NCBI GenBank assembly: GCA_020137815.1
Contig: CM035355.1
Location: forward strand, 1,674,001 to 1,738,000
Origin: Hormiphora californensis
Lineage: Eukaryota; Animalia; Ctenophora
Direction of reading: 5' to 3'
DNA length: 64,000 nucleotides
This document shows positions 25,343 to 59,246 of the stretch, piece by piece. How positions within the stretch are numbered: the first letter of the stretch is position 1; every line of letters starts with the position of its first letter. The position numbers were made by a program, and so were the translations under genes. The notes under the pieces were generated by a model. That model was not told the origin of the DNA. It did no database searches and was given only the letters and a program-made list of their open reading frames with translations.

Positions 25343-25373
25343 TTCAACACTACTTTAAACAAATTAATTTGAG
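25343..25373 (+). other. Relic (retrotransposed) spliced leader TTCAACACTACTTTAAACAAATTAATTTGAG
   Basis: Matches the 3' 31 nt of the Pleurobrachia-type ctenophore SL as I recall it. It is followed by TGTTCC rather than a GT donor, so it is not an SL RNA gene. Confidence 0.75.
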
Positions 25374-25530
25374 TGTTCCACTTATAATCGATTGATCCGT
25401 GTTAGAGGTTATTTTCCAATCTTCGATATCTTATAGTTACGTGAATCTCTGTGGGCTTATTAAGAACGTACTGTGAGTGTTTTGAGTTGGGATTTATCTC
25501 TGTCCAGGAGTGTGAGCCAGGTGTTTTAGG

Positions 25531-26841
25531 ATGAACAATTTTCATGGTATTACGAATAGAGAGGAGTTTGATAGAGCTCTTGAGAGTATGGTATTTAATT
25601 CTAAGTGTAAGGGTAGCTCTGTTCTGAGTCGTCTGCTTGAGGGGGATATTACTCCTCCTCCTAACAGTCCAAGTGGCCCAACCAGAGAGCAGGTATGGGG
25701 TCTTCTAGTGTCAGCATATGCATTGATACCCAGCAGCTCCAGAACCCGGTTTGAAAGCGGCACTAGCTCAACGATGGATGCAGGTTCCCTGGAGGTATTG
25801 AAGGAAAGTTTTGAAAGCCTGAAGACTGATCTTCTAGCGACCATTGAGAGGAGAGTTGATGATCAAGTATCGAAGATACTGGATAAGAAAGAGGATGGGA
25901 ACAGTGGAATTGAGGATCAACCAGAACCAGTGTTACCGATGAAGCATTATGTGGATATTAAGCTTGAAGTGGATGAAGATGATTCTGCGGCTCCGGTATG
26001 TCCGAAGAAGCAGTGGGCTGAGTTTGTGAAGCCAAAGGTGGAATCTGCGCTCAAGGGGGTCCCTGTACTCAATACATTTGTTAATAAGGGCTCTGTCCGA
26101 CTTTCTTTCGAGACAGATGATCAACTCAAGGCAGCTGGTGCGGTTCTTTCACCGGCTTTGGGACAGGAGATCCAGACGGTTACAGAGAGGAAAGCGATGC
26201 TTGACCCAAGAATTGCGGTGAATGATTTGGATGCAGACTTACTTGATGAGGAGAAACTGATTTCGGAAATCCTGAGTGACAAGAATCAGGATATAAAGAA
26301 GGCCCATGGACAGGGTGGAAATATCAAGGTTATCCATATCAACAGGAATGGTAGTTTTGCTGTAATCCAAGTCTCCCCAAGTATTCGGAGGATTATTTCA
26401 TCTAATAAGGACAAGATTTTCCTGAAGCTGAGGCAACATTCAGTTAGGGATCGGTTTCATGTGGTGCAGTGTTTCCATTGTCAGGAGTTTGGTCACGTGG
26501 CTGGTTCTATGAGGTGTTCCAAGAAGGACAGTCCGGCAGTTTGTGCGTTCTGTGCTGGTGAGCATGAGACGAGACAGTGTCAAGAAAAGAGGAAGAATGA
26601 TGTAGCCAAACTGAGGTGTATCAATTGTCATGGCAGTGGAAGCAGAGAGGATAGGAGGCATTCAAAGACGCATCTTGCATCGAGTACCTTATGTCCTTTT
26701 TACATCAATGAACGAGGAAAGCTGATGGATAGGACTGCTGGCGTGAGTAAGGAGACAAAAAATGTCTACCGGACGAGGGCAATGGAAGAGCTGAGGATAA
26801 AACGACTTGGAGGATCGGGACGCTCAATGTCCATTCTATAA
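25531..26841 (+). CDS. LINE-A ORF1 (gag-like nucleic-acid binding protein, three zinc knuckles)
   Basis: QCFHCQEFGH..C, CAFCAGEH....C, CINC...H...C. Confidence 0.9.
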   Translation: MNNFHGITNREEFDRALESMVFNSKCKGSSVLSRLLEGDITPPPNSPSGPTREQVWGLLVSAYALIPSSSRTRFESGTSSTMDAGSLEVLKESFESLKTDLLATIERRVDDQVSKILDKKEDGNSGIEDQPEPVLPMKHYVDIKLEVDEDDSAAPVCPKKQWAEFVKPKVESALKGVPVLNTFVNKGSVRLSFETDDQLKAAGAVLSPALGQEIQTVTERKAMLDPRIAVNDLDADLLDEEKLISEILSDKNQDIKKAHGQGGNIKVIHINRNGSFAVIQVSPSIRRIISSNKDKIFLKLRQHSVRDRFHVVQCFHCQEFGHVAGSMRCSKKDSPAVCAFCAGEHETRQCQEKRKNDVAKLRCINCHGSGSREDRRHSKTHLASSTLCPFYINERGKLMDRTAGVSKETKNVYRTRAMEELRIKRLGGSGRSMSIL

Positions 26842-29759
26842 TGAACAAGACGGGAGGAATTCTGACTCATCTAGAGGATAAGGAATGTGACGTGTGCTTA
26901 GTACAGGAGACTTATCTAAAAGCTACGGATACAGCGAAGATCAGGGAAATACAGGATAATGGATGGCAGGTATTCTCTAGTCCAAGGAGTGAGAGAGCTG
27001 GTGGTGGCATTGGTGTTTTCTATAGGGACGGAGTAGTGGTCAAACGAGCACCTGTTAAAGACAAGTTCAAGACCTTTCAGGTCCAGGAAGTGCTTATTGG
27101 AGGAGATGATGATCTTGTGAGGCTCTGTAATATATACAGACCCCCCTACAATGGAAAGGCTCGGTATACAGAGGCAAATTTTCTGGAAGAGTTTAATGGA
27201 TATATATCGAACCTTCTCATGAAAACAGGAAATCCGATGATCATGGGAGACTTCAATTTCCAGGTTCAAGACTCAGGCAACTTCTATGCGAGGAAGCTTC
27301 TTCACCTTTTGGACTCATTTGACTTTGTGCAGAATGTACCATCAGTTCCGACTCATGTGAGGGGAGGAACTCTGGATCTGATGATCTGTCAGCGTGATTT
27401 TCTTACTAAACTGGAAAACGTGCAAGTCTTTCCGGATGGGACGTTGTCAGACCACTTCTTGGCTACAGTGGACCTAAAGCTCTCTACCCCTGGAGATGAT
27501 TATAGGACGTGGAGGAAGATGTACAGCTACAGAGATTTTAATTCGGTTGATCCAGAGGAATTCAGACGTGCTCTCCAGGAAGTTTGTCTTCGGGTTCCAG
27601 ATGGGTGTACTGCAGAGGAGGCTTTGAGGATCTATGATAGTGCGTTAGAGGAGGTGGTGAGGAAACTGGTACCGATGAAGAGAAGGAAGGAAGTAAAGAG
27701 TGTTAAGTTGTGGAGGGAGAGACAAGATGTTCGGGAGGCACTAAGGGAGAGGAGGAGAGCAGAAAGGGCTTGGGAATCTAACAAGACAGGACTCAACAAG
27801 ATACAGTACAAGGAACTACAGAGGCGTTTTGAAAAGATTGATAAGCAGGCGAGGATGGAATTTTCCCGGAAGCAGCTTGAGGAGGTTAAAGATGATCCTG
27901 CAGCGCTGCAGAAGAGGCTAGGTCGTCTAATTGGAAAGTCTGAAACTGTTCTGCCAGGAGGAGTGTCAGACGGAAAGTTGGCAGGGGATTTTGCAGAGTT
28001 CTTCAGTGGGAAGATTGAGAAGATTCGGACAGCGGTTCGGGATGAGCAAGAGGAAGGTTCTGAGGAGCTCACTGTGGATTCTCTGCCTGCGCCTACCTGT
28101 ACTCTAACCAAGTTTGAGGAAATCAGAGTTAATGAATTAGCTCGGGTTGTCAAGGAAATGTCATCGAAGTCTTGTGATCTGGACCCTATTCCGACCTGGT
28201 TGGTGAAAGACTGCCTTGAAGAACTAGCGCCGATCCTGACGAACATTATCAACAAATCCCTTCTACGATCTACTGTTCCAGATATTATGCAGAAAGCATT
28301 GGTGATGCCAACGATAAAGAACCCCAATGGGGACACTGATTTATTTTCGAACTACAGGCCGGTTTCTAACATATCGTTTGTATCGAAGGTACTGGAGAAA
28401 GTTGTGCTCAATCAGTTAAACTCATACCTATGGATGAACGACCTACTCAATGCAGACCAATCTGGGTATAGGGCGGGGCATAGTTGTGAAACACTGCTTG
28501 CTGGAATGTTTGATGACCTGTTGAAGGATTTGGATTCTGGCAAAGTATCGGCCCTTCTGCTGCTTGACATGAGTGCGGCTTTCGATACTGTGGATCATTC
28601 GAAGCTGATTGGAATTTTGGAGGCAAGGTTTGGGGTAAGAGGATCTGCGCTTGAATGGTTTAGAAGCTACCTTAGCAAAAGGACTTTTAAAGTGAATGTT
28701 CGTGGGGAACTCTCGGCGGCGATTGCTCTAATCTGTGGAGTCCCACAGGGGTCCCTTCTCGGACCTGTTTTATTCTTGCTGTACATTGAGGAACTTCAGG
28801 ATATTGTTCGTCCCTATGGCCTAAAGATCAAACTGTATGCAGATGACTCTCAGATATACTTTGGACTGGTTCCGAGTGATGCAGAGGGGTGGAGTTCCAG
28901 TAAAAAGACCCTAGAGGATTGTCTCAAGAATGTCAAAACATGGATGGTTAACCATGGACTTAAGTGTAATGAGGACAAGACGGAGTTTCTACTGTTGGGA
29001 AAGACAAGCTCCTTGGAAAAGATGGCATTTGATCCAGAGATCCAGTTTGGAGGTTCGGTGGTCAGGCCTATGGAATGTAAGGGGACGACAGGAAAGACCC
29101 TTGGTGTTCTCATGGACCATCAGTTGACTCTTGAGAGACAGATATTCAATGTTAAGAAACAGTGTGGCCTTATGCTCAAGAACTTGTGGCAGGTCAACAA
29201 GTGTCTTGACAAAGATACCAAGATTATGTTGGTCAAGCAACTGGTCATTTCCCGGATTGATTACTGCAACATCCTTTACTATGGACTACCTAAGAGGATA
29301 TTGAGGTATCTTCAGAAGACCCTGAATTCTTGTGTGCGTTTCATTTTCAATCTAAAGGGACATCAGGATGACTACACAGAATACTACAAGGAGGCACACA
29401 TTCTACCTATTGAGCAGAGGCTGACTTTCAAGGCATGTCTTTTGGCGTACAAGATTGTACGAGGCACTGCACCCAAGTATCTGACGGACCTGGTCCCTCG
29501 TGATGACAATCCTGAACCTGTAAAACCTACCCGATCTACCTCAGTTCCAGATTTCTTCAGGTTGAAATATCCAAAGCTCTCAAGTGTAAATGCGAATTCT
29601 AAGTTAAGAAGGAGGAGGATCTCTGTATTCCTGCCGGAAGTGTGGAACTCCCTGCCATTGGAGTTAAGGTCTGTTCACCCTGTTGAACTCTTCAAGACAA
29701 GGCTTAAGACCCGGCTATTTAAGGAAGCTTTCGTTGATCCAGAGAGCAGTAGCACCTGA
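26757..29759 (+). CDS. LINE-A ORF2 (APE endonuclease plus reverse transcriptase); frame opens before the listed ATG at 26841
   Basis: WRIGTLNVHS lies upstream of the ATG. Then VQET, IYRPP, GDFN, TLDL, SDH, NYRPVS, LDMSAAFDTVDH, GVPQGSLLGP, YADD, SRIDYCN. Confidence 0.93.
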   Translation, partial: KKCLPDEGNGRAEDKTTWRIGTLNVHSIMNKTGGILTHLEDKECDVCLVQETYLKATDTAKIREIQDNGWQVFSSPRSERAGGGIGVFYRDGVVVKRAPVKDKFKTFQVQEVLIGGDDDLVRLCNIYRPPYNGKARYTEANFLEEFNGYISNLLMKTGNPMIMGDFNFQVQDSGNFYARKLLHLLDSFDFVQNVPSVPTHVRGGTLDLMICQRDFLTKLENVQVFPDGTLSDHFLATVDLKLSTPGDDYRTWRKMYSYRDFNSVDPEEFRRALQEVCLRVPDGCTAEEALRIYDSALEEVVRKLVPMKRRKEVKSVKLWRERQDVREALRERRRAERAWESNKTGLNKIQYKELQRRFEKIDKQARMEFSRKQLEEVKDDPAALQKRLGRLIGKSETVLPGGVSDGKLAGDFAEFFSGKIEKIRTAVRDEQEEGSEELTVDSLPAPTCTLTKFEEIRVNELARVVKEMSSKSCDLDPIPTWLVKDCLEELAPILTNIINKSLLRSTVPDIMQKALVMPTIKNPNGDTDLFSNYRPVSNISFVSKVLEKVVLNQLNSYLWMNDLLNADQSGYRAGHSCETLLAGMFDDLLKDLDSGKVSALLLLDMSAAFDTVDHSKLIGILEARFGVRGSALEWFRSYLSKRTFKVNVRGELSAAIALICGVPQGSLLGPVLFLLYIEELQDIVRPYGLKIKLYADDSQIYFGLVPSDAEGWSSSKKTLEDCLKNVKTWMVNHGLKCNEDKTEFLLLGKTSSLEKMAFDPEIQFGGSVVRPMECKGTTGKTLGVLMDHQLTLERQIFNVKKQCGLMLKNLWQVNKCLDKDTKIMLVKQLVISRIDYCNILYYGLPKRILRYLQKTLNSCVRFIFNLKGHQDDYTEYYKEAHILPIEQRLTFKACLLAYKIVRGTAPKYLTDLVPRDDNPEPVKPTRSTSVPDFFRLKYPKLSSVNANSKLRRRRISVFLPEVWNSLPLELRSVHPVELFKTRLKTRLFKEAFVDPESSST

Positions 29760-32039
29760 GTCATCTCGTCTTTGGGTCACTGGTTCTGTTCTGGTCTGGG
29801 TTTAGTGTTCCCCTTAGGCAGACGTTTATTTAGACAGTGTTATTCCTCATTACATTTACCGGGCTTGCAGTAATGGCTGCTGACTTTTTAATAGCTTTGA
29901 GAGCTGCTGTCTTTGAGTAGCATGAGAGCTGCTGACTTTGTAATTTAGCTTATTCAGTGTGAGAGCATTTTTATGCCTATCTAAGTAGGTTCGTATTTTA
30001 TGAGGCCCGTATTTTCATCAATAAAAGTCTATCTATGGTGTGTTTAAATCCAGATTTTAATAGTGTGTGTCATAAGTAAGGAAGGTGTTATAATTTAGGT
30101 ATACCGCTCTGACGCTGAGCAGTGTCAGTCAAAATTCAGTTTGCTGGCCCTGTTTTGCCTGGGCGGTATACAAAAACTTATATTATTATTATTATTATTA
30201 GTTACCAAGGAAGAGCATTAGGTAGTCGTAGACGGTGAGCACCACAAAGAAATTAACAGTGACGACATCAATGAGTCTCTCGTGTGAACCATCCGTTGAA
30301 ACATTCACATACATTCCTGGTTTCTACTGATGAGGGTAGTTTATGTTAGATGAATTAGAAGATGGAAGCCTTGCTCGACCCTCTCTCTCTCTCTCCGTGC
30401 ACCGTAAAAGAGGGTTAGAAAGAGGATAGTAGTCAGCTGATCTAATCCATGTCATCACTCAACAGTAATCATCCGAGGAGAAATAGTCGGCAATGATAAA
30501 TGAGGTTAATTTATAATCGCCACGAATTTTCACTTTTTCTAGACGGACTGATTTCAGTAGCCATCACTATAACTACTACTACTGCAGTTCTCCAATTTAA
30601 AAGCAAACCAAGTAAAAATAAACAATGCTGTAATAACAGCTATCTTTCGACAGATTCTGACCGCAACCACACATTACACACAAATTACACTGCAAGCGGA
30701 AGAAGATAATAGTAAAGCGCAGTCTAGTGAACGATCAATGACTTGCTAAAGCGTTTAACTTCACCCTCTCATTTTCACAAGCATAATGGCAATTAGAGGG
30801 GAAAATCTATTAACTAGTGATCTATACCGATCGTGGTTTTGCCAAAATATGATTAGTCTAGCCAGAGGGGTGCCATCTAAAGGTCTAATTAAAGGTTGAA
30901 TTAAAGATTAAAATAATCTTATATTTTTACTTAAAAATAATTAACACAGTAGTTTGATCTCTAGCTGTTAATGTCGTCGCCACCCAAATACAGCATACTT
31001 AAAACCCCCTCATCGTGCAGCTGCTTATGCATGAGTCATTACTCATAACAGGAGCTTAGTTAAAAAAGAGAGAGAGATAGAGGGGAGAAAAAGATAATGG
31101 TCGTGTTTGAGAAACCCAAGCTTCAATTTAGCACAACCACTAATGATTGAGTCAAGAGAGTGGAGAGACAGGCCTGCATGTAGAGGGAGGAGGAGATAAA
31201 AAGTAATGCAGCAGCTGTCACAGCATAGCTAACACACTCGAGTGAAATCACGATATTCCTATGCAATACTATAATTCATAATCCCGTATCCATGGATACT
31301 TGATGGGAATTTGGGAGAGAAAGTATTCATTACTCAATCTCGCTATGATCTATTGTAACAAGCGGGCACTGCAGGACTAGAGCCTCCTATGAAGATAGCT
31401 ATTAAATTGGGTGCTGAATATTCAGATTCACAACAGGAGACAAGTTCTCCGGTAACTGGTAAGCAGGTGGTAGCCGGGATCAGAGGTTATAAATATTACA
31501 TGATGATGCAGGTGGTACCATAAGGAGGAGGAGGTGATGTAAGAATACAGGTGCAACTATTGCAGCTGATACTTGAATAAGATGATTCAGGGTGATAAAG
31601 AGATAGCCCCCCACCCCTTGTTCCATAATTCATGCACTGAGATTCTTCAATCTTCAAATTCTCTACTGTTCTACCTTTGATGAGTGACCCGATCTTGATG
31701 GAAATAATTGGAGACAATGTGAAAGAACGACACAACATTCTCATAATCCCCCCGTACAAAATAAATTTAGGCTCAGGAAGATTAAGAGGGCATACGGGGA
31801 CGATCCAAAAAAGAAGGTATCCGGTATCAGTAAAACTCAGCTCAGTTGAAAGTTTTGACCTAAAAGTGTCAAAACTAAAAACTCCAGTAAGACTATTAGT
31901 TTGACTAAACTAGACTATGAGACGCCCTGAGATGAATTTTACAATCTAACGAGCTTTTTACTTTGATACACACCTATAGAGACAAACAACATGGTCAACA
32001 GCTCCCAGCACTTGAATACAGTTAAACCTCTCACACTCT

Positions 32040-32075
<36 letters not shown>

Positions 32076-34875
32076 GCCCACTCTATCTGTTTTCAAAGCT
32101 ATTACACAAGCTATAGCGAGATAAATGTCCTCTTAGGTCAACTTGCATATAGACTCTCTTTTTCCTATATAACTTTTTCGTTATGATATCAGGAAATAAA
32201 AACTTTATACTAGCGCCCTGAGACCACGTGGTCTAGGTATGTACCTATATAGAGAGAGGGGCTTATCCTGTTAAGTCGCGAAGTTCATGTAATGGGAAGT
32301 ATTTTGAATATCTGATGTGGATACTGCATAACACATGTGACATGAAGTTACATTGAGGGATATTGTACGTTATTACGGCCAAAGTGGAGGGTCCGGGACG
32401 AGTTGTTCAACAACCATCAAACATGTCTTACTGCAAATCATCATTCATCAAATCATGACTCATGCAACTCATATCTTTAACAAAGATACGTTGAGCTCAA
32501 CGAATTATCGATTACTATTTAGGTGCTGCAGAAATATCGCCAACTTCCATACCACTGAGACAAAATTTCCCGGCGGTGAAAAAGGAACAATTAAAATTTC
32601 TTATCGAATTATAAAAAGAAGAAAAGGGAAAAAATAAAAGTTATTGGGAATGAGCTGTTATTTCCGGTGAATGTTCCAATTTGCACTGTATTGACTGCAG
32701 CACAAAAGTGGCTCTATAAATGTACACCATGTGCTACAACAGCAACCAGGCAATACCACATGTTAACGTTTATAATATGTTAGTCCACTCCATGCATAGT
32801 GCTCCACACAATTCCTCGATAATCGGATAACAAATTTGCCATGATAGCAAGACAAATAGATGTCTTAAAAAAACAAAGAAAGGGAAAGATATCCTCTTTT
32901 GAACTAGAAGCCATGATTTTCTCAAAGAGGAGAATATATATCATAGTAGGGCGAGGTAGACAATGAAGGATGCGGGATCGCATGCAAATAGAAACGTTTT
33001 AATATGCATCAAATTACATAAGGATTATGGTGATTAGGGGGGACTGAAAAGGAACATGTTGAGACTATGTTGTAAAATCCAGTACACCAGGGATTAGGGC
33101 TAGTCTAAATACAGTCTACAGACTTGGGTATGATATCCCCTCTTCTCTCTCCCTCCTGCGCTATCCTCTGTCACGGTTTCGTGCATGCGACGTCTAGTTA
33201 GAGATGGGGGCTCCCTCCCCTTCCCAAAAAGAGAGGGTACACCGTGCCAAATCTACAGACCTACTCAGTAGAGGGTTGTATAGGTTGGGCATGACACAAA
33301 ATGTTTTGTTAAAAGATAGCTAAATACCAAAGCCTTGAGATCAGGAACTAAAAAGTACTGCTTATATTATCTGAGTAGCTTTTGACTAGTTAGCTTCTAA
33401 AACAGTTGTTCCTATATAAAAAGAAAATCCCGAAAACAAAACAAACTTCAAAAAGCTGCAGCTAATTGAGTTGTGCATGCCACCACCAGGACACTTGTAT
33501 TAAGTGCTTGAAGTGTTCATACACAGTGTTCTAGGCGACTCAAAAAAGTGCTTGTCTGCTTATCATGGCGGCACTTGCCCTGAACTGGTAAAATATTTAG
33601 TGTCACGTGTAGAGTGGCAAAGGGGCCGATAGACTACAGCTGGAACGTGCAGGTGTGCAGATGCATGATATATAATGTCCTAGTTGTACTAGGATCAATA
33701 GCGGGAAAGTGCGGTCAGAGCATTAGGGAAAGTGAGATCCACTGAACTGCAATGAAACTAACTCCTGACATGGATAATTTCCTAACGGCAGAGGGAAAAT
33801 ATATCTTTGCCAAAACAAAATAATTATGACCATTATTTTCAGCTTTGTAACCTGAAGTTCTTTAGCAGGGTCTATGTGTGGCGTCATCCAGACCTTTTGG
33901 AAGAGACAATGCCAGGCATATGAGAGGAAAAGGTTACGAACAACATGTTTAGTTGTCCCTTCTTTCCTGTATAAAGTGAAGGGGGAAAGGACTCCTTTCA
34001 AAGGAGGAACATAACCACTCACAACCCCTCGCACAATGTAAAAGTGAAGAGGGTATAGTTCTCCCAACAAGCTATACACAGCACTATTATCATTATGATA
34101 GTTATTTGATTGGTCTACCAAATGTTGCTAGCCGCATAAGATGGTGGCAACATGGAGTTAGTAACTTGCTTTGTGTGCAAAAGAAACAAACATGGCGATA
34201 GGAAGAGCCCGGCAACGTGTGATATTAGTAGCTAGCGGTGCGTATGAGACCATGAATTTAGATGAGCTTTTGTCTTGCAATTGGGGGTGGGGTGTGCGTC
34301 AGCAAGATGTGCTTAGCGAGAAGAACAAAGGATGCCGGATAATTGTAATGAGGCGGGGAGATGAGATCTAATGAGGGTAGACAGGATGCACATCTCATTA
34401 TACTCTCACTTTTGGTGTTACTATTGGAAACACATTTCAACACAGCTGTCAACATGTCATGGAATCAACATCATCTGAGATGAACCTTGAAAGGTTGAGG
34501 ACCTAACGTCATAATGATAATATCTGTTACGGCAAAACTACAACCGAGGGAAAATGAAGTACCGTTCAATGCTCACACTGTGATGCACACTGTGTTAGCT
34601 GATATATCGAAAGCTTACACACAGAGGGTACGCTGGCAAACTTATCACGTGACTACTGGTGATATGTTGAATACTCAATACTAAATTATGGTATGTGTAC
34701 TTCTTTAATCTTTATCATCGAATTGTTTATATTTAGAAGGTAGCCCCAGCCCGGCTCCCACTGTCAGGCCAATGCTCTGACCGCAGTTCTCGGCTCTCGC
34801 GCGCTCCTTCTTTGAGAGAAATGAGAATAGGGGCAGGCCAATGCTCTGACAGGGCTCCCAGCTGTGCTTGTCTTG

Positions 34876-35317
34876 CATTCATCATCATCATCATCAATTA
34901 ACATTTAATATACCGCTTTATAGCATACATTGGTAAGATAACACTAATAAAAGAAAAAACTTTACGGATATCTTCCTGCTTTCAAAAGCGGTTTTACTCT
35001 ACTAGATCATTAGATTAGAGTTCAGAACTAGTTTGTATGAATGTTCAAGCGTCCCTTGGTGCTTCTACCACCCTCTTTCCACGGATTATGTAGTGGGTTC
35101 CAGGGGACCGCTTTATTTTCTCCCTCAGCTCAACTACCAGCTGCTTCCGTTCTTTCCGTTCTTCCTCAGTTCTATCGGGAGAAATAAAAACTTTTTCGAA
35201 CTTATCAGTCCCTTTTAACAGGCATTTCTTTGACAGGATCGATATTTGAGCTTCTCTGCTCCTCAGCACAACTTTCACAGGTCTTGCAAATGAGGCCTGC
35301 TTTCCCAAGCGCTCCAT
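34876..35317 (-). mobile_element. 5'-truncated ORF1-only LINE derivative with a (GAT)n tail
   Basis: RPVKV...VFISPDRTEEERKERKQLV.EL is a typical CR1/L2 ORF1 C-terminus. The stop is followed within ~150 nt by GCGGTATA and (GAT)n, with no ORF2. Confidence 0.65.
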
Positions 35318-35780
35318 GGAAATTTTTGGACGTTCAAAAATGTAAACTAGCAGTTATCAGAACCAGACGTACTACAAACATACATCTGCATCGTCATTAC
35401 GCATCGTCATTACGTATCATTCCGTCTCGTTCACTCCCTATATCTTATTCTTTCACCCTCACTCTCCCTATCTTGGGCACGTCGCACGCCTCTGTGTTTG
35501 CACCAACTTCCCTCCCTCACTCAACTCTTTCACGTTTGATTTTAAGTCTAACTTTACATCTTCTATGCGTATCTTTATGTGCCCAAAATGATCTGACCAG
35601 GCTAAACCAAGACCTTTTCTGTTTTCTGTTTTCATCTGGGTTCCTGTGACGTCACCAACTCAGCGTGTAAAAAATTCAGTGAATTTCATATTTTACGATG
35701 CCAAATCACGCGCAAAATGGAACGCGCGAGTTCAAAAGATGAAAGCGCTGCCGAGTTTAAAGTCCGTTTCAAGCGACTTA

Positions 35781-35997
35781 GTGGAACCTCTTACGGTATT
35801 TCCCACGCCCCGTGGGAAAGTTTTTGACCGTGGGAAAGTTTTCAAACCGTGGGAAAAGAGAGATACATACAATAACATACAAAAAATAATTATTTTTTAA
35901 CGTTATTGTATGTATCTCTCTTTTCCCACGGTTTGAAAACTTTCCCACGGTCAAAAACTTTCCCACGGGGCGTGGGAAATACCGTAAGAGCTTCCAC
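35781..35997. mobile_element. Palindromic MITE, copy 1 (TA-flanked)
   Basis: GTGGAA..TCTTACGGTATTTCCCACG arms form a ~100-bp inverted repeat with internal CCGTGGGAAA repeats. Confidence 0.88.
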
Positions 35998-36021
35998 TAA
36001 CTTGACCCGTAATTCTTGGTA

Positions 36022-36239
36022 GTGGAAGCTCTTACGGTATTTCCCACGCCCCGTGGGAAAGTTTTTGACCGTGGGAAAATTTTCGAACCGTGGGAAAAGA
36101 GAGATACATACAATAACATTAAAAAAATAAATATTTTTTAAATGTTATTGTATGTATCTCTCTTTTCCCACGGTTTGAAAACTTTCCCACGGTCGAAAAC
36201 TTTCCCACGGGGCGTGGGAAATACCGTAAGAGCTTCCAC
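36022..36239. mobile_element. Palindromic MITE, copy 2 (TA-flanked)
   Basis: Near-identical to 35781-35997. The two TA-flanked copies are separated by 20 bp. Confidence 0.88.
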
Positions 36240-36302
36240 TATGGAATTTGGCGCATTGCGCGTGTATTTACAAAAGGGATCCCTAAAAAAGTTCAGTACT
36301 TA

Positions 36303-37654: not shown

Positions 37655-37863
37655 TACACAGCGTTTACACAGTCTTTACACAGTCGTTACACCCAGAGCG
37701 GCGCGTGCTGCGCACAGCGGCTTTTTCCAAGAAAATATTGGATTGTGTGCTGCACAATTGAGAGAATTGAGCGCCGCGGCGAAAAAAGTTTCCATAAACG
37801 CTGCAAATCGAGTGCAAAAGACGCAGTCGTTACACCCAGAGCGGCGCGGGCGCTCTGGGTGTA

Positions 37864-38015
37864 AAGTCCATTTTTATTCAACTGTTCACCCCTCAACTCG
37901 TGCGCGTGCGATATTTTAATTTACGCTGCGCGCGCTACACGTTAACATGTGATAAACGCGCAAAACAATTCCGCGCACGACTTTGGGGGGTGAATAGTTA
38001 AAAAAAAATGGAGTA
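37864..38015. mobile_element. 152-bp MITE (nested), same family as 10908-11059
   Basis: Inverted copy of the same length. TA TSD at 37862-37863 and 38016-38017. Confidence 0.85.
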
Positions 38016-42200: not shown

Positions 42201-42272
<72 letters not shown>

Positions 42273-42288
42273 TTCTCTTTCTCTCTCT

Positions 42289-42356
<68 letters not shown>

Positions 42357-42982: not shown

Positions 42983-43064
<82 letters not shown>

Positions 43065-44053: not shown

Positions 44054-44084
<31 letters not shown>

Positions 44085-48109: not shown

Positions 48110-48145
<36 letters not shown>

Positions 48146-51100
48146 TTCTCTCTTGTTACACATGTGCTCAGTCATTTTCGCTCTCCGTTCAACCCATTTC
48201 CTTGCCTGCACGCTCCGTCGTGTTTAATTTCTCTATTTTCGTTTCATCTCCAATCTCATTAGCGCGTTAATTGGAACATAATCACCATCATATTCTCTCT
48301 ACACACACATTGCCAGTGTACCTTTTTGTCAAGATGCTGCTGGGTTACTACCACTCTTTTAATGGTAATGTAGAGTTCAATCAGTGAGCTGTCTAGTAGT
48401 TATTTAGTTCAATCTCTTTAAAATGATTCAATCTCTTTAAATTGTTGTCTAATCTAGCTCTCTCTCAACCGTATAGCAAGGAGCAGCTGTTATAATACTG
48501 CTCCTCCACTTCATTCTATCTTTCTCTCTGTGTCTCTCCTCGCTTTCCCATGTGTCTCCCTCTTCAGTCGTCTCCTCTAATTCTCCCTCTCACCCCCTCG
48601 TCAGTCGTCTCCTCATGTCCCTCCCTCTCACCCCCTCTTCTTCAGGACCCTTGGAGCTGGTCCAGAGTAACATCATGCAACTGTCTGAACCTCTCAACGG
48701 GGTAATAAAAAGCGGACAGGTGGCATTCAGACCTAATGATAGTGCAACCAACTTCCATAAGTACAGGGACAAAACTAGTCCTGACTACCCGTACGATTCA
48801 ATCCAGCCCTCACCTGAATATGCACTGTCCCCTGAGAGGTAGGTAATTGCTGTAGAATGTTCTGAATTATGTCCCACAAAATACTTTCCTCTCCGAACCG
48901 GTCACGTAGTATGAAAATCTGAATTATGGATCTTGGAGCCTGAATACTATGAGAAGTTTGAGTGTCACTTTTTTGAGACACACTGTATTTTCAGCATTTG
49001 TTCCGAGGAGAATCTTGTTATGGAGGAACCCATTAGACCTATCCCGCTGAACAGTGATCCTATTCAACAACACAAATCTTCCCTACAAAAGGGCTCGCCC
49101 CGAGTCAGGGTAAGAAGAGACATCACAGAGCGCAGTGTGAGCCACACAACTGCGTGCAAAAAGAACGCACAACTCACATCAGCCACTCACTTGAATCATT
49201 GCTCTACAGGTAGACCCTGCTGTCACTATCACCCCACCATCTTGTAACCATGGTAACAATCATGGTAACGGTGGTAACGGTGGTAACCATGGTAACTTTA
49301 CAATGTTTGGTTTTCTGGAGGCTCTCACTGACAATGAGGCTGTCCGAAAGTTCCTTCACTCACAAAGGGGCAATGAATCACTCATAAGAAACACCTACAA
49401 ATTCTATACCACCGAAACATTGTGTCAACGAAGTCCAAGGAAGATTACACCTACTAAAACCTCAAGACAAATCGTAATCAGAGTCATATTCATTAGATTT
49501 ATCTCACTTCACTACCAAATTCCAAGATATATAATACACAGTAAGTTGAATATATACCCTCCATCTCGCAGCGTAAAAACAACAAGAACAAGGTGAAGAA
49601 GTTCAAGTACCACGAGTACAAACCCCCTGGATCCTCCAAGAGTGCAGCTGACAAGGCCGCTGCTAAAGATCAGACACCTCATGATATCATACTACAGCAG
49701 CAACAACTTCTTCTCCAGCTACAGGTATATATATAGAGGGAGAGAGGTCTCTAGATGGTAGTTGAAATATTCTAATTCCAAGACGAGAAACACCAATACA
49801 TGTATCCCATATAATATCCCGTATCCTAATGTCAATGATCGAATCAACAGGTGATGCAGAAGAACTACCCAAACCATATCCTGCCCAAAACTCTGGATGT
49901 CCTCAATGAAATTAGGGCTAAATCTTCCAATGCTGCCCCAACTGAGAGCCATCTAAATGATATGAAGGTACCTTTACTAATCGACACTTAATTCAGTTGT
50001 CTGATTGATTTCATTGTCAGGAAGTTAGATCTTCCCAAAACCTGAAATTAACCTGCTATTATTCCAGGTATCAGCCCTGAAGCAGGAGTTGAAGAAGAGG
50101 AACCTGCACACGTATGGGACAAAGAGTCAGCTAGTAGAGAGACTCAGGCCATATGTAGACAAGGACATTGTCAGGACACCAGCCCCTCCCCCCGACAGCG
50201 GCTCTACCAATCCGTACGTTTAGTAGTCCACCCTTTTAAAAAGGGTCTATCATATTTCCTCTTGTTTGTTTGTATACGACGTTTTAGGAACCTGATTAAC
50301 CCAGTATTTCCACGAGTTTGTTATGAATTATCCTTCAGAGATTTTAGGAGATCTAACAGTGAGGGAGATCAGCTAGATGCAACAAGGGCAGAAAGGAAGC
50401 CATCAGGACAGGCAGTGATATCTTTAGAGGATATCCTGAATTCTTCCCTGGAGACTCACATCTCCCCACCCCTTGGCATCATCAATAGCAATCCTAGTAG
50501 CAAGGAACAGGATGAGGTGAGTCAGTTGAAAGAAGTTGTCTATTGATTCTCTAGGCCAACACCCCCGGCACCACATACCGGCACATGCAACGACTAACCC
50601 CCTCATCTCGTGTCAGGGTTGTAACTCTATCCTAGACCATATCGGGTCGATGATGAACGAGTCTGAACCCATGAGTTACTCCCAACTACTATCGTCCGAT
50701 CAGCAGCCAACACCAGAGGTATGTGGAGAGTCTGGAGTTGTTGGGCTGGTCGGGAATTGGAGTGTCATGTTGATGGGATTCATGGGAATTATTTAGCTTG
50801 TCAGGATGTCTGTTGAGCTGCTTCCTCTTGACACACATATAACATAACAGGAATTATTACTCGCATGCCCGACTAATTTCTACACGCTTCAAGTTTAGTG
50901 TGCGTTCTATATAGGAACAAACGTACAAGTGTACACATGTCTCAAGGCCACGTTAATTGAATATTGCGTACTGTAGAAGAGGGTAGGGAGAAATTAGCAA
51001 TGAAGAGAGAGAGAGATACTGGCATATATTGTGGGAAAATAATGAAGAGAAAGAAGATGGAGAAATCATATTGTGAGATGGAAAATAAATGTTGGATTAT

Positions 51101-52026
51101 GTAGAAAAAGAGAGGAAGTGAGAGATCTCCCATCAATCTGCTTCTTTTTCTTCTGACCGTCTGTGTGTGTGAGTATCAGTAACTCCTCATTTAACAACTT
51201 CCTTTTCTCTCTCCTTTTCCTGCCAGCACTCGACTCCCTCTGTTACTCCCTCTGTTACTCCCTCTGTTACTCCCTCTGTTACTCCCTCTGTTACTCCCTC
51301 TGTACCTTCCATCACTCCCTCTGTACCTTCCCTCACTCCCTCTGTACCTTCCATCCCTCCCTCTGTACCTTCCATCCCTCAATCGGGTTAATAAATAGGG
51401 GAAATTAAAGAAAGCATATGTAATTACAGAACGAAATATATAAAGTAACTAACTAAATAGGTAAATTAAATCAATAACTCCTGTAACTTAACTAATGAAA
51501 TCTATTAACTTGCATCACTACAATCGGTAACACCTTCACACAGCCAATCACTATGCTAACTTAAACTCACTCCCTCTGTTACTCCCTATGTTACTCCCTC
51601 TGTTTACTCCCTCTGTGATAACTTCACTCACCTCAATATGTATATGGATATATAATAGGGTCGGTTAATCAGCCTTAGAACCATTTCCGGTTCGATTCTT
51701 TGTCGTTTGAGATTGTCTATTGTGTGAAAAAATAATTGTATATGTTTGTTTCTCTATATATAATATTATGTCTATGAAATTTGTATATATGTATAGTATG
51801 TATACTATTATTATATAATGTTTAAGAAAAGATTCTATTTGAGTCTGTATTTTTAACAGGGAAATGTTTGTTGATATATCTGTATTTTAAAATAAGGTAG
51901 TTAATTTGTATATATATATATCTATAATAGATATATATAAATATATATATATCTATATATATATATATATATTTATATCTCTTCTCTCTCTCTCTCTCTC
52001 TCTATCCTCCTCTCTCTTCTCTCTCC

Positions 52027-52065
<39 letters not shown>

Positions 52066-52553
52066 TTACAGCTGCGTGTGCCGGCCTGCCTATTGTCGGA
52101 CGCACACTCTCCCTGCTTGTGTTGAACGCGAGCCATTATACCACAAGGTTATTTGCCAGGGAGATCCCGCTGTTATTATTGTTGTTGTTGTATACCCGGC
52201 CAGTTGTAGGTGTGAGAATGAATTCTTGACGTTGATATATATTAAAGAGAGATATACTTGGACATGAGCCAAATTTCAGTAAATCTTTCACTTTCATTAT
52301 CTCTCATCTCTCTCTATAATGCCGATGTCATTTCTATCCTTCTCTCTCTGTCTTCCTCTTTTTTTTTTTTTCTTGATGCGTTTTTTTTGAGCTAATTGAA
52401 TATATTTCGCGACTGATGTGTACAAGTGTTACAGTAGGCATTCTCTAGTTGCAAACGGGAGAGAGAGAGCGAGAGGAGATGAGGAGAGGGAGAGAGAGAG
52501 GAAGAGGGAGAAGGGAGAGGAGGCAGAGACTGGGGGAGAGCGAAGGAGACGGA

Positions 52554-52627
<74 letters not shown>

Positions 52628-55600
52628 GATAGTTGCTTGTAAGGAGGATAATGCTTCCCAGTACACGGCCTCGCGGCTCGCCATGTAATGTCTATCTCTC
52701 CTTCAGCTCTCCCTCAGTTTGTTGTTGCAGCCTCTTCTTTTCACATCATGATTGTCCCTCTCTCTCTCTCTCTCTCCACAGTCCACAATATTTCTAAATA
52801 TTATCCGTCTACCCAGACTTGTATACCAGCCACCCCCATTCAACCCCCGGCCATTCACGTGTGTGAATCACTAGGCCAACTGGTTGGAGGGGTTACTAAA
52901 ACACGTGAAGATGGTGCTAAACTCTCTCTGTCTCTGCTTATGATGGTGGGGGATATCTTGTTCTAGAAGACTGTGTGTGGTTCTGCCTAATGCTTGCAAC
53001 TCCTACCGTCTTTCTTACTGCAGTCAACGTGTGTAAAGCGATCTCAGCAATCTCTCTCTCTCCCTCACTCTCTCTCTCTCTCTCTCTCCCTCACTCTCTC
53101 TCTCTCTCTCCCTCACTCTCATTCTCTCTCCCTCTCTCACTCTCCCTCCCTTGTATAGCGTGTTCGTTATTGCTCACTTATCCACTTTCTCTCTCTGCTT
53201 GCTTCTTTCTCTTGTCGTATACTGAGTGGAGAAGTGTTGCACGTTGTCTTCTGTTCGTCACATTTCGCGCCTTTTAGAATTATTCCTCACTCTCTATCTA
53301 TCCCTCTCTAGTCTCTATCCCTTTCTATCCATCTTTCTGTTTCTCTCCTTCTATCTTCTCACCGTTTCTTCATAGTTTGAATGAACAACAGACACTTCAG
53401 CGGTGATACCCCACCTTCAAGGGCTGCTTCCACCGCACCTTATGTGCGCAGGGTTACTGGTGGACCTCGCTCGCGGAACACAATTCATTATGTTAGTAGT
53501 GTGTTAGTAGTGTGTTAGTATTGTGTTAGCAATGTGTTAGTATTGTGTTAGTATTGTGTTAGTATGTAATGGGGGGGATTTGGCACAAATTTTAGTCCAC
53601 AAAAGGGTTGATAGTTATTACGCTCTGTGAGGGTTCGGTAGATCAAGGATAGTTGTCTCTGATCCGTGGAAGTCATATCAAGAAGGAGATAATTATCTCA
53701 ATGGCCATTATTCTAGAAGCAGCATGTGAGAGAGAAACAGGAAGAGAGAGAGACATGAAGAGTGAGAAAGAGGAGAATGAATTAGGGGGTAAAAGAGGGA
53801 AGTAAGATTTGGATATATCATGTTACAGAGTTATGTGTTGACACTTCTCTCAAGGCATTCCTAGCTTTGTAGTCCAGTTTGTTTAGTTCTTCCATGACAG
53901 TCCAGTACCCAGATGATTTATTTTATACCATGTACCATTGTGAGTGGGAGCCAGCTAGGTGTTACAAGGGGGAATGTAGGGTTGTTGCCATGGTGACAAT
54001 GGGGTGTTTAGCAGCTCCATCGGCTAATTATTGAAACAGTTTTGATACTTGAATTTCATATTATATTGTTGGTTACGAAGTTACCCCTTGCCAGCACGCA
54101 CAGAGGGGTTATTTCGTAACCAAATTATATTGTACATACCTAGTGCAATTACTATTCTTGTTGATACTTGATTCTGATACAATATCCTATCCAGGTGCCC
54201 CAACACCAGCCTCCACAAGGCATGATAGCAGGCCAACAACAACAACAACAACAGCTCCCTCCCTCCTATTACCCCTCTGAGGGGTACACCACTACTACAA
54301 ACACCCAGTTCAACTCCTATCCCGCTCAAGAGATGATACCTATACCACAAGTACAGGCAAACACGGTTAGTAAGCACCACGGGGGGGGGGGGGGTCGGTA
54401 TTGGGCTAAGAGAGAGGGGGTGATGTGAGATAGTTCAGAGTCAATCATGAATGCTCTTTTTCAACCCCCTCTCCCTTTTTCAGAATCTCTACTTCAACGT
54501 CCAGCCCCAGTTTCGTGCCAGCAACCCTCCTAATCCTGTCAATGTACCTGCTGCTTCTCAGCCTGCCTACGCTGATCAACAATACCTTATCATGCAGCCA
54601 CCACAGGTATTGGCATATTGTAGGTAGTCATTACTTGTAGTCATAATTTGTAGTCATTAGTCATACCAGTCATATTTGGCTGTCAAGAATATATAACGTC
54701 TTTATGGTATCTGAAGACCCTATAATTACCCCCCCCCCCTCTTACCAGGCGGGTATGAAACAGCAACAGTTGGCTCAGATCCAGCAACAGCAACAACAGG
54801 CCGGGGTTTCACAGCAGCAACAGCAACAGCAGTACCCACCTACCACGGAGTACGCACTGATGCCACCTCAATACATGGTAATAAAAATCAAATTTTAGCA
54901 CTCTACGATATCAGGGAACATGCTAGTCTAGAGTGGACTTCCCCCCATGATACTGTATGTTTTGATAACAGGTTTAGCTAACTAACTATGTTGCTACCCC
55001 CTAACTCTCCCTCCCCTCAGAACGCAGGATCCACTCTCCAGCAGTTGAGGCAGGCCCAGCAGCCCCGGTATATACAGCAACAGGTCCACCAACAGCGGCT
55101 AAACAGTCAGTATAATAACTCTGTTTCCTCCCCTCAACAACAACAACAACACCATCATCAACAAATCAGGGGTGTAGGTGAGTTGATGGGTGTGATAGAG
55201 AGTTCTAATTATGGGTCATGGGTGTGATAGAGAGTCTAAATGATCTTGCGTATCTGGGGGCTGGGAAGCAGAAAACTTGAGAGTTGAATGTTATCAGTAA
55301 CGAGTTACATCTTATTCCCATTTCAGCTCCCACTCCGGATACTCTGAAGATAGACCTGAACCAAACTGGCAAGAAGAATATCTCAACTCCGGAGGTGATA
55401 AACATAATCCTGGGTTCCCCCAACACCACGCCTCTATTGAAGAAGGGCGACAAGGTTGGGGATCCATTCAGTTCTAATCGAGGTGGCACTCCCATTACAT
55501 CTCAGGTATTATTATACAGCTGAACATCCCACCCACCTCCCGGCTGATAATGTGTTGTCCCCCACCGATCGTGGGTCGTGATCCTTCCCTCATACACTCA

Positions 55601-56333
55601 CCCCACCGGACCCAACCGACCCATCCCTGTTAATTCCCGCCCCTAGTTCCTGTTCCTAGTGTATCAATTCCCCTTCCCCATAATCCATATCCACCAACCC
55701 CCCTCCCCCGTTGCAGCAGGTGGCAGCCCCCGTTCAACAGTGTCCCAACAACAACAACAGGAGGAGTTATGAGAGGGAGGTGTCAGAGGACCATTGGATT
55801 GGTGTGAACATGCCCCAGGTAGACTCATGTAGGTAGTAACCGTGCTGTATATGGTTGCTACAACGTATAATATCTTATGTTAAATGGGCCTCTTCTACTG
55901 CTGAATGTCCCTTCTATTCGTATATTTCCAATGTTTTCTTCTACTTCTTTTCTTATTCCATATTTACCTTATTCACCCTAAAGGCTTGGGCACGTCGCGC
56001 CCCTCATGTTCGCGCGCCCGTAGGGCGATCCCCTCACATAAGAGCCCCTACGGGGCTTGCCCGCTACGCGGGCAACCTAAAGGCTCTATGTATCCCACCC
56101 GGCCCCATTCCTACCCCACTCTCCCTCAGGATCTAGTAACACCAGATACAGCCCACTTCTCCAAGTTAGTCACACCGGGTGGTGACAGGGTGTTTGAATT
56201 CAGTACCCCAACAACAACAGCACCAGACCCCTCCACATTATTCAATGGTGGCAGTTGCAGTACCGATCCCAACATGTTTCTCAATACACCCGCCACACAG
56301 GCCCAACAAAAATCAGGCTGGGGAGTTAGGTGA
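41132..56333 (+). CDS. MRTF: Myocardin/MRTF-family SRF co-activator (RPEL repeats, basic box, SAP domain, Q-rich C-terminus); multi-exon, locally frameshifted in this sequence
   Basis: Exon peptides ELQRKLMSRRSMGELRQQNL (~43660), SPSVHDKRIQLQRAQ (~44870), DLLNKKIRYRP.EQERLVSNNIL (~45120), DPSLVSRQQKLARAKL (~45575), GPLELVQSNIM..GQV (~48650), KVKKFKYHEYKPP (~49590), SAP LNDMK|VSALKQELKKRNLHTYGTKSQLVERLRPY (~49950-50155). The first exon (41132-41308) and the Q-rich 3' exons (54170-56333) are assigned with less certainty. Confidence 0.85.
51234..51380. repeat. Minisatellite: 12-mer ACTCCCTCTGTT then 21-mer CTCCCTCTGTACCTTCCATCA
   Basis: Direct tandem repeats, with a partial recurrence at ~51568-51615. 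Confidence 0.9.
53490..53565. repeat. 11-mer minisatellite (TGTGTTAGTAG/T)
   Basis: About seven tandem units. Confidence 0.85.
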
Positions 56334-57126
56334 CAATGAAAGAGGGATTAAGGGTCTATAATCGAGGTTTCAAACTGTATAAATAGTTTTTGTGTTATTT
56401 GCTGTATAAAAATGTATACTGAACCTATTATATTGCGAGAGAGAAAGAGATCTTTATTTATTTTTGTGCATCATGCATGAGCAAAAGAGACAAGAAAAAG
56501 CATGAAATTTCCAGATATGAATACCCTATTGAATACAAATGTGTATGTAGCAGTGCTACTACGGGTTAAAATGTATTTTACTGTGCTTAATGGAAGAGTT
56601 GTGAGAGTGACAATGATATTCAAAACCGATGATATTGAGGATAAATTCCCCCTGTTACAGTGTTACAGTGTCTATGGATTTCTTGTTAAGCTGTTATGTA
56701 CTTCTATAATAACACTGACATACACTAAACCATCGGGTTTTGATCTTATACCCTGCAAATAATTTTGAATTAAAAAAAATCAGGACACTGAACCGGACGA
56801 AATTTTTGGTACGCGCAAATAGGACGCCGCGCATAAAAGATGTTAAGAGTGCGCGCGCGAAAAATAGTACAAAAATAAATAAAAACATTTTAGCCCGGCT
56901 TTTTTTAGCTTTTTTTTCGGTCCGGCACGGCGCGAACCGTTTTTGTTGACGTGTTACTTTCTTCCACAACGTACAACTAACTCTTACAGCATTCAACAAG
57001 TTTAAAAGCGTTTAATTTAGTGAAAAACGTCTTCAGAATAATCTGAGGTCTTCTGGCAACCAGCGTATTTTGAACTTTTTGTTGTTTCCGAAACAAGTGT
57101 TTAATTGAGCCTAATTCTCTACAGAT

Positions 57127-57556
57127 ATGTCACGAGTTGTTAAGCTTGTTAATCCACGCATGATAACTGGTATAGTGGGCCGGGAAATAGTAAAAGACCC
57201 TTACTTCAGCCTCCACAAGCTGTATAACACCACTCTCACAGAATTGAAAACCCTCCCTGAGAGCTACCCTTACCGAAAAGAAACGGAGAGACTTACAAAA
57301 GAAAGGTGCTGTGACGTATTCAGTATTTAATCCTCCCCTCCTCCATGTTCTGACACAATATTTCTTCAGGCTGTCTCTTCTGGAAAATGCGAAATCTGTC
57401 GTTGAGTTTGAGGACGCTGTGAACGCCCGCTGTATCGAGAATGTCATCCAAGAGGCGAAGAGCGAGTTGTTGCTAATTCGAAAGTTGCCCGCTTGGGCTC
57501 CCTGGGAACCTTTGGTGGGAGATGCACCTGTCGACCAGTGGAAGTGGCCTATTTGA
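57127..57556 (+). CDS. NDUFA5: NADH dehydrogenase 1 alpha subcomplex subunit 5; exons 57127-57305, 57370-57556
   Basis: TGIVG....P...L..LY..TL..L..LPE..PYRK.TE....ER|L.....IE.VI.EA..EL.L...W.PWEPL....P.DQWKWPI. Confidence 0.95.
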
Positions 57557-57694
57557 ACTGTCACGATATAATATTAAGTGCTATTGAGAGTTGTGAGTTT
57601 GTATTGGATACTGTTAACTAAGTTATTTCTACACTGTGAGATACTGTTGTCGGTTGAACCCCATCATAATATCTGATTATTCCCAATAATAGCC

Positions 57695-58467
57695 ATGCCA
57701 GGAGTAAGCGGACCATCAGGAGAGGCCTTTGTTACCCTTGTAACAAACACTGAATATGGACTCAGTGCGGCCATTCTGGGTCACAAGCTGCAATCTCACG
57801 GCACCACCAGGGATAGGGTTGTCATGGTAACTGATACAGTAACCCAGGAGACAAGAGACCTGCTCTCTCGACACTGGGACAAGATTGTTGATGTGTCTGC
57901 CCTTGATAGTGGTGATGCCGTGCGGCTGGCTCTAATGAAGCGACCTGAACTGGGTATTACCTTCTCTAAACTGAATGTCTGGAGGATGACTCAGTACTCT
58001 AAAGTTGTCTTTGTGGATGCTGACACTATGCCACTTTCCAATATCGATGAGTTGTTTGGGTTTGAAGAGCTATCTGCATGCAGGGATGCCGGATGGCCTG
58101 ACTGTTTTAATACCGGCCTCTTTGTCCTGGCTCCTAGCGAAGGTAAATGTAATATCAGCTTTAAATATTTGCTGTATTTGGAGGATGGATTATTTATTTA
58201 TTGCATAACTAATTGTTTCTAGAAAAACTGACCCTAATTTTTCACACAGAAACATACCGTGCTCTTGTAAAACGAGCTGCTGAGGAGGGCTCCTTTGACG
58301 GTGGGGATCAGGGTCTTCTGAATGCCCACTTCGCAGACTGGTCGTACGGGGACATCAAGAAGCACATCCCCTTTACTTTTAATGAAAACCCAAAGACATC
58401 ACATATCCAACATGTTTCTCAATACACCCGCCACACAGGCCCAACAAAAATCAGGCTGGGGAGTTAG
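57695..58467 (+). pseudogene. GYG: Glycogenin (GT8) 5' part, truncated at ~58406 by a duplication junction; exons 57695-58142 and 58250 onward
   Basis: [55 protein letters not shown]. The sequence then switches to a copy of 56269+ and stops at 58467. Confidence 0.85.
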
Positions 58468-59203
58468 GTGACAATGAAAGAGGGATTAAGGGTCTATAAT
58501 CGAGGTTTCAAACTGTATAAATAGTTTTTGTGTTATTTGCTGTATAAAAATGTATACTGAACCTATTATATTGCGAGAGAGAAAGATATCTTTATTTATT
58601 TTTGTGCATCATGCATGAGCAAAAGAGACAAGAAAAAGCATGAAATTTCCAGATATGAATACCCTATTGAATACAAATGTGTATGTAGCAGTGCTACTAC
58701 GGGTTAAAATGTATTTTACTGTGCTTAATGGAAGAGTTGTGAGTGTGACAATGATATTCAAAACCGATGAGATTGAGGGTAAATTCCCCCTGTTACAGTG
58801 TTACAGTGTCTATGGATTTCTTGTTAAGCTGTTATGTACTTCTATAATAACACTGACATACACTAAACCATCGGGTTTTGATCTTATACCTAAATAATTT
58901 TGAATTACGAGGACACTGAATCGGACGAAATTTTTGGTACGCGCAAATGTGACGCCGCGCATAAATGATGTTAAGAGTGCGCGCGCGAAAAATAATACAA
59001 AAATAAATAAAAACTTTAGCTATTTAGCCCGGCCCCGGCTTTTTTAACATTTTTTCGGTCCGCAACGGCGTGAACCGTTTTTGTTGACGTGTTACTTTCT
59101 TCCACAACGTACAACTAACTCTTACAGCATTCAACAAGTTTAAAAGCGTTTAATTTAGTGAAAAACGTCTCCAGAATCATCTGAGGTCTTCTGGCGCCCG
59201 GCG
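58407..59203 (+). repeat. Direct duplicate of 56269-57065 (MRTF 3' end and NDUFA5 upstream region)
   Basis: About 797-bp alignment at offset 2138 with scattered substitutions and small indels. Confidence 0.95.
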
Positions 59204-59246
59204 GTTTCAAACTTTCATCAACTACAACGTAAAACTATTTATTGAG
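59204..59246 (+). other. Relic spliced leader variant GTTTCAAACTTTCATCAACTACAACGTAAAACTATTTATTGAG
   Basis: Begins exactly where homology to 57065 ends. Resembles 25343-25373 (TTCA.CA.CTAC...AAA...ATT...TTGAG) and the recalled ctenophore SL 5' GTTTCAAACTTT. Followed by GCGGC, with no GT donor. Confidence 0.7.

Follow-up and report, generated by a model that had tools for sequence, protein, structure and literature searches.

LINEs in DNA of the ctenophore Hormiphora californensis and in metagenome contigs begin with the 3' part of a host-type spliced leader (SL), and the leader on these LINEs is a real, family-wide feature. It was very probably acquired by trans-splicing of the LINE RNA and then reverse transcribed together with that RNA; an earlier note on this DNA had proposed this route, and exact exon-end joins on many independent copies bear it out. 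LINEs need a complete 5' end in each cycle, for which internal promoters and self-cleaving ribozymes are the known solutions. A leader refreshed by the host spliceosome would, if true, add a third to these and link transposon activity to SL trans-splicing.

Results

Two LINEs headed by leader-like blocks

The window analysed here is a 64,000-nt stretch of H. californensis DNA, in which AT-rich blocks of 31-43 nt ending in TTGAG had been described at the heads of two long LINEs. Both blocks are present, with lengths of 31 nt and 43 nt, respectively. The two elements, termed LINE-A and LINE-B, and the sequences around them comprise the following features (positions are those of the window).

25343..25373, plus strand: spliced-leader relic (block 1), the last 31 of the 43 nt of the SL exon with 0 mismatches, ending TTTGAG
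25374..25530, plus strand: LINE-A 5' UTR, 157 nt, with an acceptor-like TTTTAG one base before the ORF1 ATG
25531..26841, plus strand: LINE-A ORF1, 436 aa, open; CCHC-type knuckles by sequence reading, no Pfam match
26751..29759, plus strand: LINE-A ORF2, an open frame of 1002 aa that encodes an APE-type endonuclease and a reverse transcriptase
29760..30200, plus strand: LINE-A 3' UTR and (TTA)n tail, the tail at about 30177-30200
58407..59203, plus strand: host DNA that precedes LINE-B; it duplicates, at 94% identity, 56269-57064, which lies ahead of a close pair of host genes
59204..59246, plus strand: leader-like block 2, 43 nt ending TTGAG, 35/45 columns against the SL
59247..60793, plus strand: LINE-B 5' UTR (113 nt) and ORF1, ATG at 59360; open; PHD finger and knuckle region
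60745..63660, plus strand: LINE-B ORF2, endonuclease and reverse transcriptase, one in-frame stop at 60880-60882

LINE-A, on the plus strand, spans 25343 to about 30200; both of its frames are open and it ends in a (TTA)n tail. No target-site duplication was seen at this element by eye. The 3' end and tail of LINE-B were not located within the window. Neither block is followed by a GT donor, as had been stated: the next nucleotides are TG after block 1, which is located 157 nt before the first ATG of LINE-A ORF1, and GC after block 2, which stands 113 nt ahead of the first ATG of LINE-B ORF1. The other features of an SL RNA gene, an Sm-type site and stem-loops after the exon, were likewise not found at the window blocks.

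The ORF2 motifs of both elements presumably resemble those of the L2/CR1 group. Both ORF2 products match PF03372, PF14529 and PF00078, which identifies LINE-A and LINE-B as APE-type two-ORF LINEs. The two had been regarded as unrelated elements with different ORF1 types. Their ORF2 products are 34% identical over 960 aa, so they are instead distant relatives. The distinction between the ORF1 types survives in part: an N-terminal PHD finger is present in LINE-B only, but the two proteins are homologous in their C-terminal halves (28% over 229 aa, E 2e-18). In viral contigs, LINE-A ORF2 had no match and LINE-B ORF2 a single match of 28 aa (L107).

The resemblance of the two blocks to each other had also been part of the original observation. 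Direct alignment of block 1 with block 2 gave a score of 27, below the best background score of 29, and mutual similarity was dropped as stand-alone evidence. The blocks are significant because each of them matches the leader.

Block 1 is a host-type spliced leader

Block 1 agrees at every base with the 3'-terminal 31 nt of two sequences: the 44-nt leader published for H. californensis (PMC8527503; here and below, statements about published work refer to the available portions of the sources) and the 43-nt exon of an SL RNA gene at metagenome locus L068. The proposed match of block 1 to a ctenophore leader is thus correct, and its status as a host-type leader is supported. PMC8527503 counts 718 genomic copies of the same leader in H. 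californensis and handles them as leader loci, without a link to LINEs in its available portions. Many of these 718 may be LINE heads; the same may be true of many genomic 'leader copies' in ctenophore assemblies, where they number in the hundreds.

Metagenome contigs were scanned with 25 nt of block 1, which yielded 107 matches at 106 loci; 80 loci were obtained with full flanks and the remainder with about 300 nt. The scan required the leader 25-mer and is therefore blind to full-length copies that lack the leader or carry an altered one. Community samples are the source of the mRNA-like contigs and of the SL gene, and a sister species may have contributed them. No match to the leader 25-mer was found in viral contigs.

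At 93 of the 106 loci no more than 4 nt separate the leader from the contig end. For these 93 loci, L013 and L069, the longest frame behind the leader matched host-type Pfam families in 72 of 95 cases, including Ras, collagen, innexin and ribosomal proteins, and matched nothing in the other 23; none of the 95 frames matched a reverse transcriptase or endonuclease. L068 is an SL RNA gene array: its 778-nt tandem unit holds a 5S rRNA gene together with the leader exon of 43 nt, behind which come a GT donor and a stable fold (z -3.67). The sequence of block 1 is therefore found both as the SL exon on diverse mRNAs and in an SL RNA gene.

Leader-headed elements are family-wide

Thirteen of the 106 loci carry at least 5 non-leader bases upstream of the leader. 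They consist of eight LINEs, two ORF1-like retroelement-type loci (L054 and L101), the SL RNA gene array L068 and two host-mRNA-like loci (L013 and L069, with 7-12 extra bases upstream). The LINEs (L020, L029, L032, L049, L066, L098, L105 and L063) were recognised by homology to LINE-A or by an endonuclease match; seven are relatives of LINE-A, and L063 was assigned by its endonuclease. The assembly that contains L063 is otherwise mRNA-like, and 351 nt of flank lie ahead of its relic (unspliced RNA or DNA). L009 and L096 are further retroelement-type loci with the leader at the contig end. These two, together with L054 and L101, are putative retroelements, a status assigned from frames resembling ORF1, from a motif that they share behind the leader and from membership in a multicopy protein family, rather than from a reverse transcriptase. 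The two assemblies with genomic-type matches contain 11 of the loci: ten of retroelement type, the SL gene array and no host retrocopy.

Identity to LINE-A within the A-type ORF1 proteins ranges, where measurable, from 91% down to 32%; the DNA of L020 is 93% identical to that of LINE-A. LINE-A is itself multicopy with an excess of 3' sequence. Its contig depth in X2, possibly the source of the window, was about 490 over the 5' part and about 1100 over the 3' part against 45-47 in the flank; the 5' part thus reaches ~10x flank depth, a depth that is not a copy number. In a second sample, X6, one contig spans 25350-25480 unchanged, covering the final 24 bases of the leader and the 107 UTR bases that follow. 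Its depth of 1360 against 129-270 for the flank indicates, with depth as a rough guide, that leader and UTR are multicopy as a unit.

The leader joins the elements at the exact end of the SL exon

In the ten flanked retroelement loci and LINE-A, the leader is kept over 28, 31, 35, 38, 40, 41, 41, 42, 42, 42 and 43 of 43 nt, that is, over at least 40 nt in 7 of 11 cases, and mismatches number 0 in all 11. For the 25 query bases this perfection follows from selection; it extends also to the 3-18 leader bases outside the query, which were not selected for. The 5' end is clipped by 1-15 nt in 10 of the 11 relics, and all 11 stop at the last base of the SL exon. The leader is followed immediately, in the eight A-type elements, by the base at which the UTR alignment starts, although the identity of these UTRs to LINE-A falls from 147/151 to 49/159 (31%). 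The exact exon-end join is free of SL intron or donor context; L049 and L066 do continue with GT, but what follows is not the SL gene intron. No match was found among the upstream flanks, or between them and the upstream region or intron of the SL gene. In all 14 elements compared, a search of 150 nt, or of as much flank as was available, revealed no second leader, and Rfam returned no ribozyme match in the window or in 12 loci. In practice, the leader marks full-length elements precisely.

We consider trans-splicing followed by reverse transcription very probable because the exact exon-end join recurs in unrelated places. A leader could also be attached by template switching or RNA ligation at insertion, with LINE cDNA joined to SL RNA or to an SL-capped mRNA; SL RNA is abundant, and U6/L1 chimeras are known (PMC11838501). 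This process would have to hit the 3' terminus of the SL exon precisely in every one of 12 retroelement-type loci and in LINE-A, leave no SL intron or mRNA sequence at the join and select one UTR position in eight relatives. The precision of the junction leads us to exclude it as highly improbable.

The arrangement also recalls CRE/NeSL elements, non-LTR elements that lie beside SL sequence and for which SL exons are known targets (PMC4640811), and SL gene arrays are present in these samples, as in L068. Site-specific insertion of this kind into SL RNA genes was rejected on the flanks: the 300 nt upstream and 120 nt downstream of the SL gene match none of the 13 element loci, nor the window. 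Moreover, the leaders are 5'-clipped and the tails of LINE-A, L032 and L049 enter non-SL DNA. CRE/NeSL elements use a restriction-like endonuclease and target SL RNA genes, whereas the elements here encode an APE-type endonuclease and sit in unrelated flanks, in agreement with the initial view that the two arrangements differ. The probability left to insertion into SL genes is negligible.

Block 2 is a looser match at the first base of LINE-B

Aligned with the leader exon of L068, block 2 agrees in 35 of 45 columns, and its first 12 nt are identical to the SL 5' part. Across both strands of the window the leader alignment score was 62 for block 1, 46 for block 2 and 33 for the next background site; shuffled leaders searched over the whole window scored below 46 in 25 of 25 cases (maximum 40, mean 32.6, SD 2.5). 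The claim that both blocks match the SL is thus exact for block 1 and may hold in a looser form for block 2.

The 797 nt before block 2 duplicate 56269-57064 with an identity of 761/808. Since this duplicate stops matching its paralog at block 2, block 2 is the first sequence of the element and not host DNA. One may argue that block 2 is itself a diverged paralog of the host sequence at 57065-57109, that it contains no leader and that LINE-B begins after it. The paralogous site is AT-rich, has a similar length and likewise ends in TTGAG. However, identity drops from 761/808 to 28/47 columns exactly at 59204, and block 2 scores 13 against the paralogous site compared with 46 against the leader, making this reading improbable.

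As the head of LINE-B, block 2 is either a second host SL class or a diverged relic inherited by the LINE-B family. Ctenophores have several SL sequences. The block 2 sequence was not found in the 107 loci compared, a set chosen for the other leader. LINE-B looks young, with one stop in 4.4 kb, and decay after insertion is an unlikely source of the differences in block 2. If block 2 is no host SL, LINE-B would be inheriting rather than refreshing its leader. The duplicated DNA at 58407..59203 is a possible source of read-through transcription, and LINE-B lies in sense orientation behind it.

A cycle that would refresh the leader

For the propagation of these elements, we lean slightly towards a cycle in which the leader is re-supplied at the relic from host SL RNA in each round. 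The LINE precursor RNA would start upstream of the junction, either by host read-through or by weak initiation in or near the relic. Splicing at the terminal AG of the relic would discard the old clipped leader as outron, and trans-splicing would add a capped full-length leader to the LINE RNA. Reverse transcription would reach the cap or come near it, and the new copy would again be headed by 28-43 nt of leader. Such an element could do without a 5' ribozyme and without an internal promoter that preserves itself.

Several features are in line with refreshing. The leader is identical to the SL gene while the adjoining sequence diverges, and the terminal leader bases persist despite clipping in 10 of 11 copies. 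The leaders are unstacked, as expected if the AG of the relic is itself the acceptor. This support (no stacking, constant leader beside diverging UTRs) is indirect, and it is balanced by the weak GAG and by stronger acceptors downstream. The relic ends in GAG, a rare and weak splice acceptor, in contrast to the CAG or TAG of putative host acceptors in the window. TTTTAG occurs before the ORF1 ATG in six of eight A-type elements, and directly behind the leader there is TTTCAG in L063 and L101 and TTTTAG in L054. These downstream sites should compete as acceptors, yet they are retained. Block 2 may also speak against refreshing, as it differs at about 10 columns from the sole SL seen and belongs to a young-looking copy.

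No LINE-A transcript was seen in RNA run X8, in which 10 of 30 bins were covered and the LINE body appeared in scraps only. Separately, an X8 RNA contig (record 29) matches the leader and the first 6 UTR bases, which could reflect RNA of a sister family or chance. The ctenophore system lends itself unusually well to testing, since this leader is long (43 nt), varying lengths of it are retained among copies, and ctenophore species have different leader sequences.

The absent stacking, the retained downstream acceptors and the drifted block 2 would all be explained if trans-splicing had occurred once in an ancestor and the leader had since been inherited as DNA, as an initiator or promoter or as a translation signal, with transcription starting from the relic and further splicing being dispensable. 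The same idea has been proposed for dinoflagellate retrogenes (PMC5585692, PMC6050394). Under such inheritance, the 5' loss of 1-15 nt seen in 10 of 11 relics should erode the leader, but the terminal bases are exact in independent families. A constant leader beside UTRs of 31-42% identity and beside different ORF1 types would further require several captures plus absolute constraint. We therefore consider a single ancient capture unlikely.

Leader-headed copies could alternatively be dead ends. Master elements would then have their own promoter, an outron and an ordinary acceptor upstream; unspliced RNA would renew the masters, and copies headed by a leader could not propagate. In Caenorhabditis elegans, Cer1 produces an SL1-spliced mRNA and its full-length RNA skips that site (PMC3315495). 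The sample studied here was selected for the leader, and in X6 the depth of the leader contig (1360) is ~1/3 of the value at the ORF1 start (about 3850), which leaves about 2/3 untied to the one leader contig shown. By contig depth, the share of copies headed by the leader in X6 would be at least about one third. Against this, LINE-A, L020 and six further A-type elements have nothing in common upstream of the leader, and both LINE-A ORFs are open. No shared alternative 5' extension at 25374 was present among the 24 loose ends listed (479 loose ends and 4339 pieces exist besides). The dead-end scheme likewise seems to us unlikely.

Refreshing from host SL RNA leads to a broader proposition, which we put forward tentatively as a real possibility. 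In pleurobrachiid ctenophores, most LINE families may lack self-encoded 5' ends; the relic would act as its own trans-splice acceptor and would convert read-through transcripts into capped, full-length, transposition-competent RNA, so that the host spliceosome rebuilds the 5' end in each generation.

Discussion

As far as the literature search reached, the feature is new for ctenophores, and its kind has already been noted in other groups. The search, which had most subscription journals and Repbase reports outside its range, found no report of leader-headed LINEs in ctenophores or of a tested recycling cycle. The available portions of PMC2861651, PMC4558846, PMC12460157, PMC7986045, PMC5890265 and bioRxiv 10.64898/2026.05.21.726589 make no mention of leader-headed LINEs.

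In parasitic flatworms, partial leaders on LINE and LTR loci have been described with the same reading, in a comment about 597 loci that were discarded (PMC12582326, Mol Biol Evol 2025). This is a passing remark, without junction, family or life-cycle analysis in the available text. The present elements differ in belonging to another phylum, in their fixed junction across diverged families and in their unchanged leader.

Dinoflagellate retrogenes with DinoSL relics (PMC5585692, PMC6050394, citing Slamovits and Keeling 2008) offer a close parallel, as there too a DNA-encoded, 5'-clipped leader tags reverse-transcribed trans-spliced RNA. Both the relic as a promoter and the relic AG as a later acceptor are discussed in these papers. 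The dinoflagellate relics sit on passive host genes and are often stacked or decayed, whereas those described here head autonomous elements and consist of one intact leader.

At the RNA level, transposable elements of Hydra likewise use host trans-splicing, with about 30% of TE Iso-Seq reads carrying an SL (PMC12220107); leaders fixed in genomic copies are not mentioned in the available part of that work. Cer1 (PMC3315495) and L1 5' chimeras (PMC11838501) also demonstrate that retrotransposon RNAs can be trans-spliced. In contrast to Cer1, whose genomic-length RNA avoids the SL site, and to the L1 chimeras, which are sporadic, the leader is family-wide in the ctenophore LINEs.

Leader-headed elements and the SL RNA gene

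The 5' ends of five metagenome loci (L054, L009, L101, L096 and L063) are headed by the spliced leader (SL) and have in common a short hairpin-like motif 10-20 nt behind it. Elements of this group gave no Rfam match, and a fragment in the window was grouped with them:

35055-35314 (-), fragment grouped with the hairpin-motif elements

Because homologs of the L009 protein lie mostly on 1-2 kb contigs, L009-type elements may be ORF1-only and non-autonomous. The 12 retroelement-type loci average 3.0 T over the 8 nt that directly follow the leader, against 1.9 in 93 other contigs, a weak test since the 12 loci are related to one another. The leader gene itself lies in a tandem array:

L068 263-1159, SL RNA gene with linked 5S rRNA, 778-nt tandem unit

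Surroundings of the two LINEs

Two features precede the leader block of LINE-A (block 1) and the leader-like block of LINE-B, respectively:

24946-25320, MITE-like short element with inverted ends, very high-copy
56269-59203, tandem duplication, 94%

The MITE-like element, with a contig depth (a rough guide) thousands of times that of the flank, stops ~20 nt short of block 1. At the block itself, one single-copy contig from sequencing run X2 links 25377 to the earlier position 25346 across 11 intervening letters, and could represent a stacked or inverted leader. Farther upstream, fragments of a membrane-receptor-like frame (22381-24443, -) are duplicated at 94% and gave no Pfam match.

The tandem duplication cuts at 58407 a gene that we take to encode a glycogenin-like glycosyltransferase-8. 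The start of this gene follows a presumed NDUFA5-like gene in the window after ~135 nt, a spacing like that within an operon.

A third non-LTR element

15724-18895 (-), third non-LTR element, one long ORF that includes a PHD-like finger and an RT
19286-19359 (-), tRNA-Thr gene, ~390 nt upstream of the element and in the same orientation

The leader search of the window found no leader-like head for this element, which is presumably CRE/R2-like, judging by its motifs. Its ORF changes frame close to the end. An 11-nt minisatellite with telomere-like units (19509-20100) adjoins the tRNA-Thr gene.
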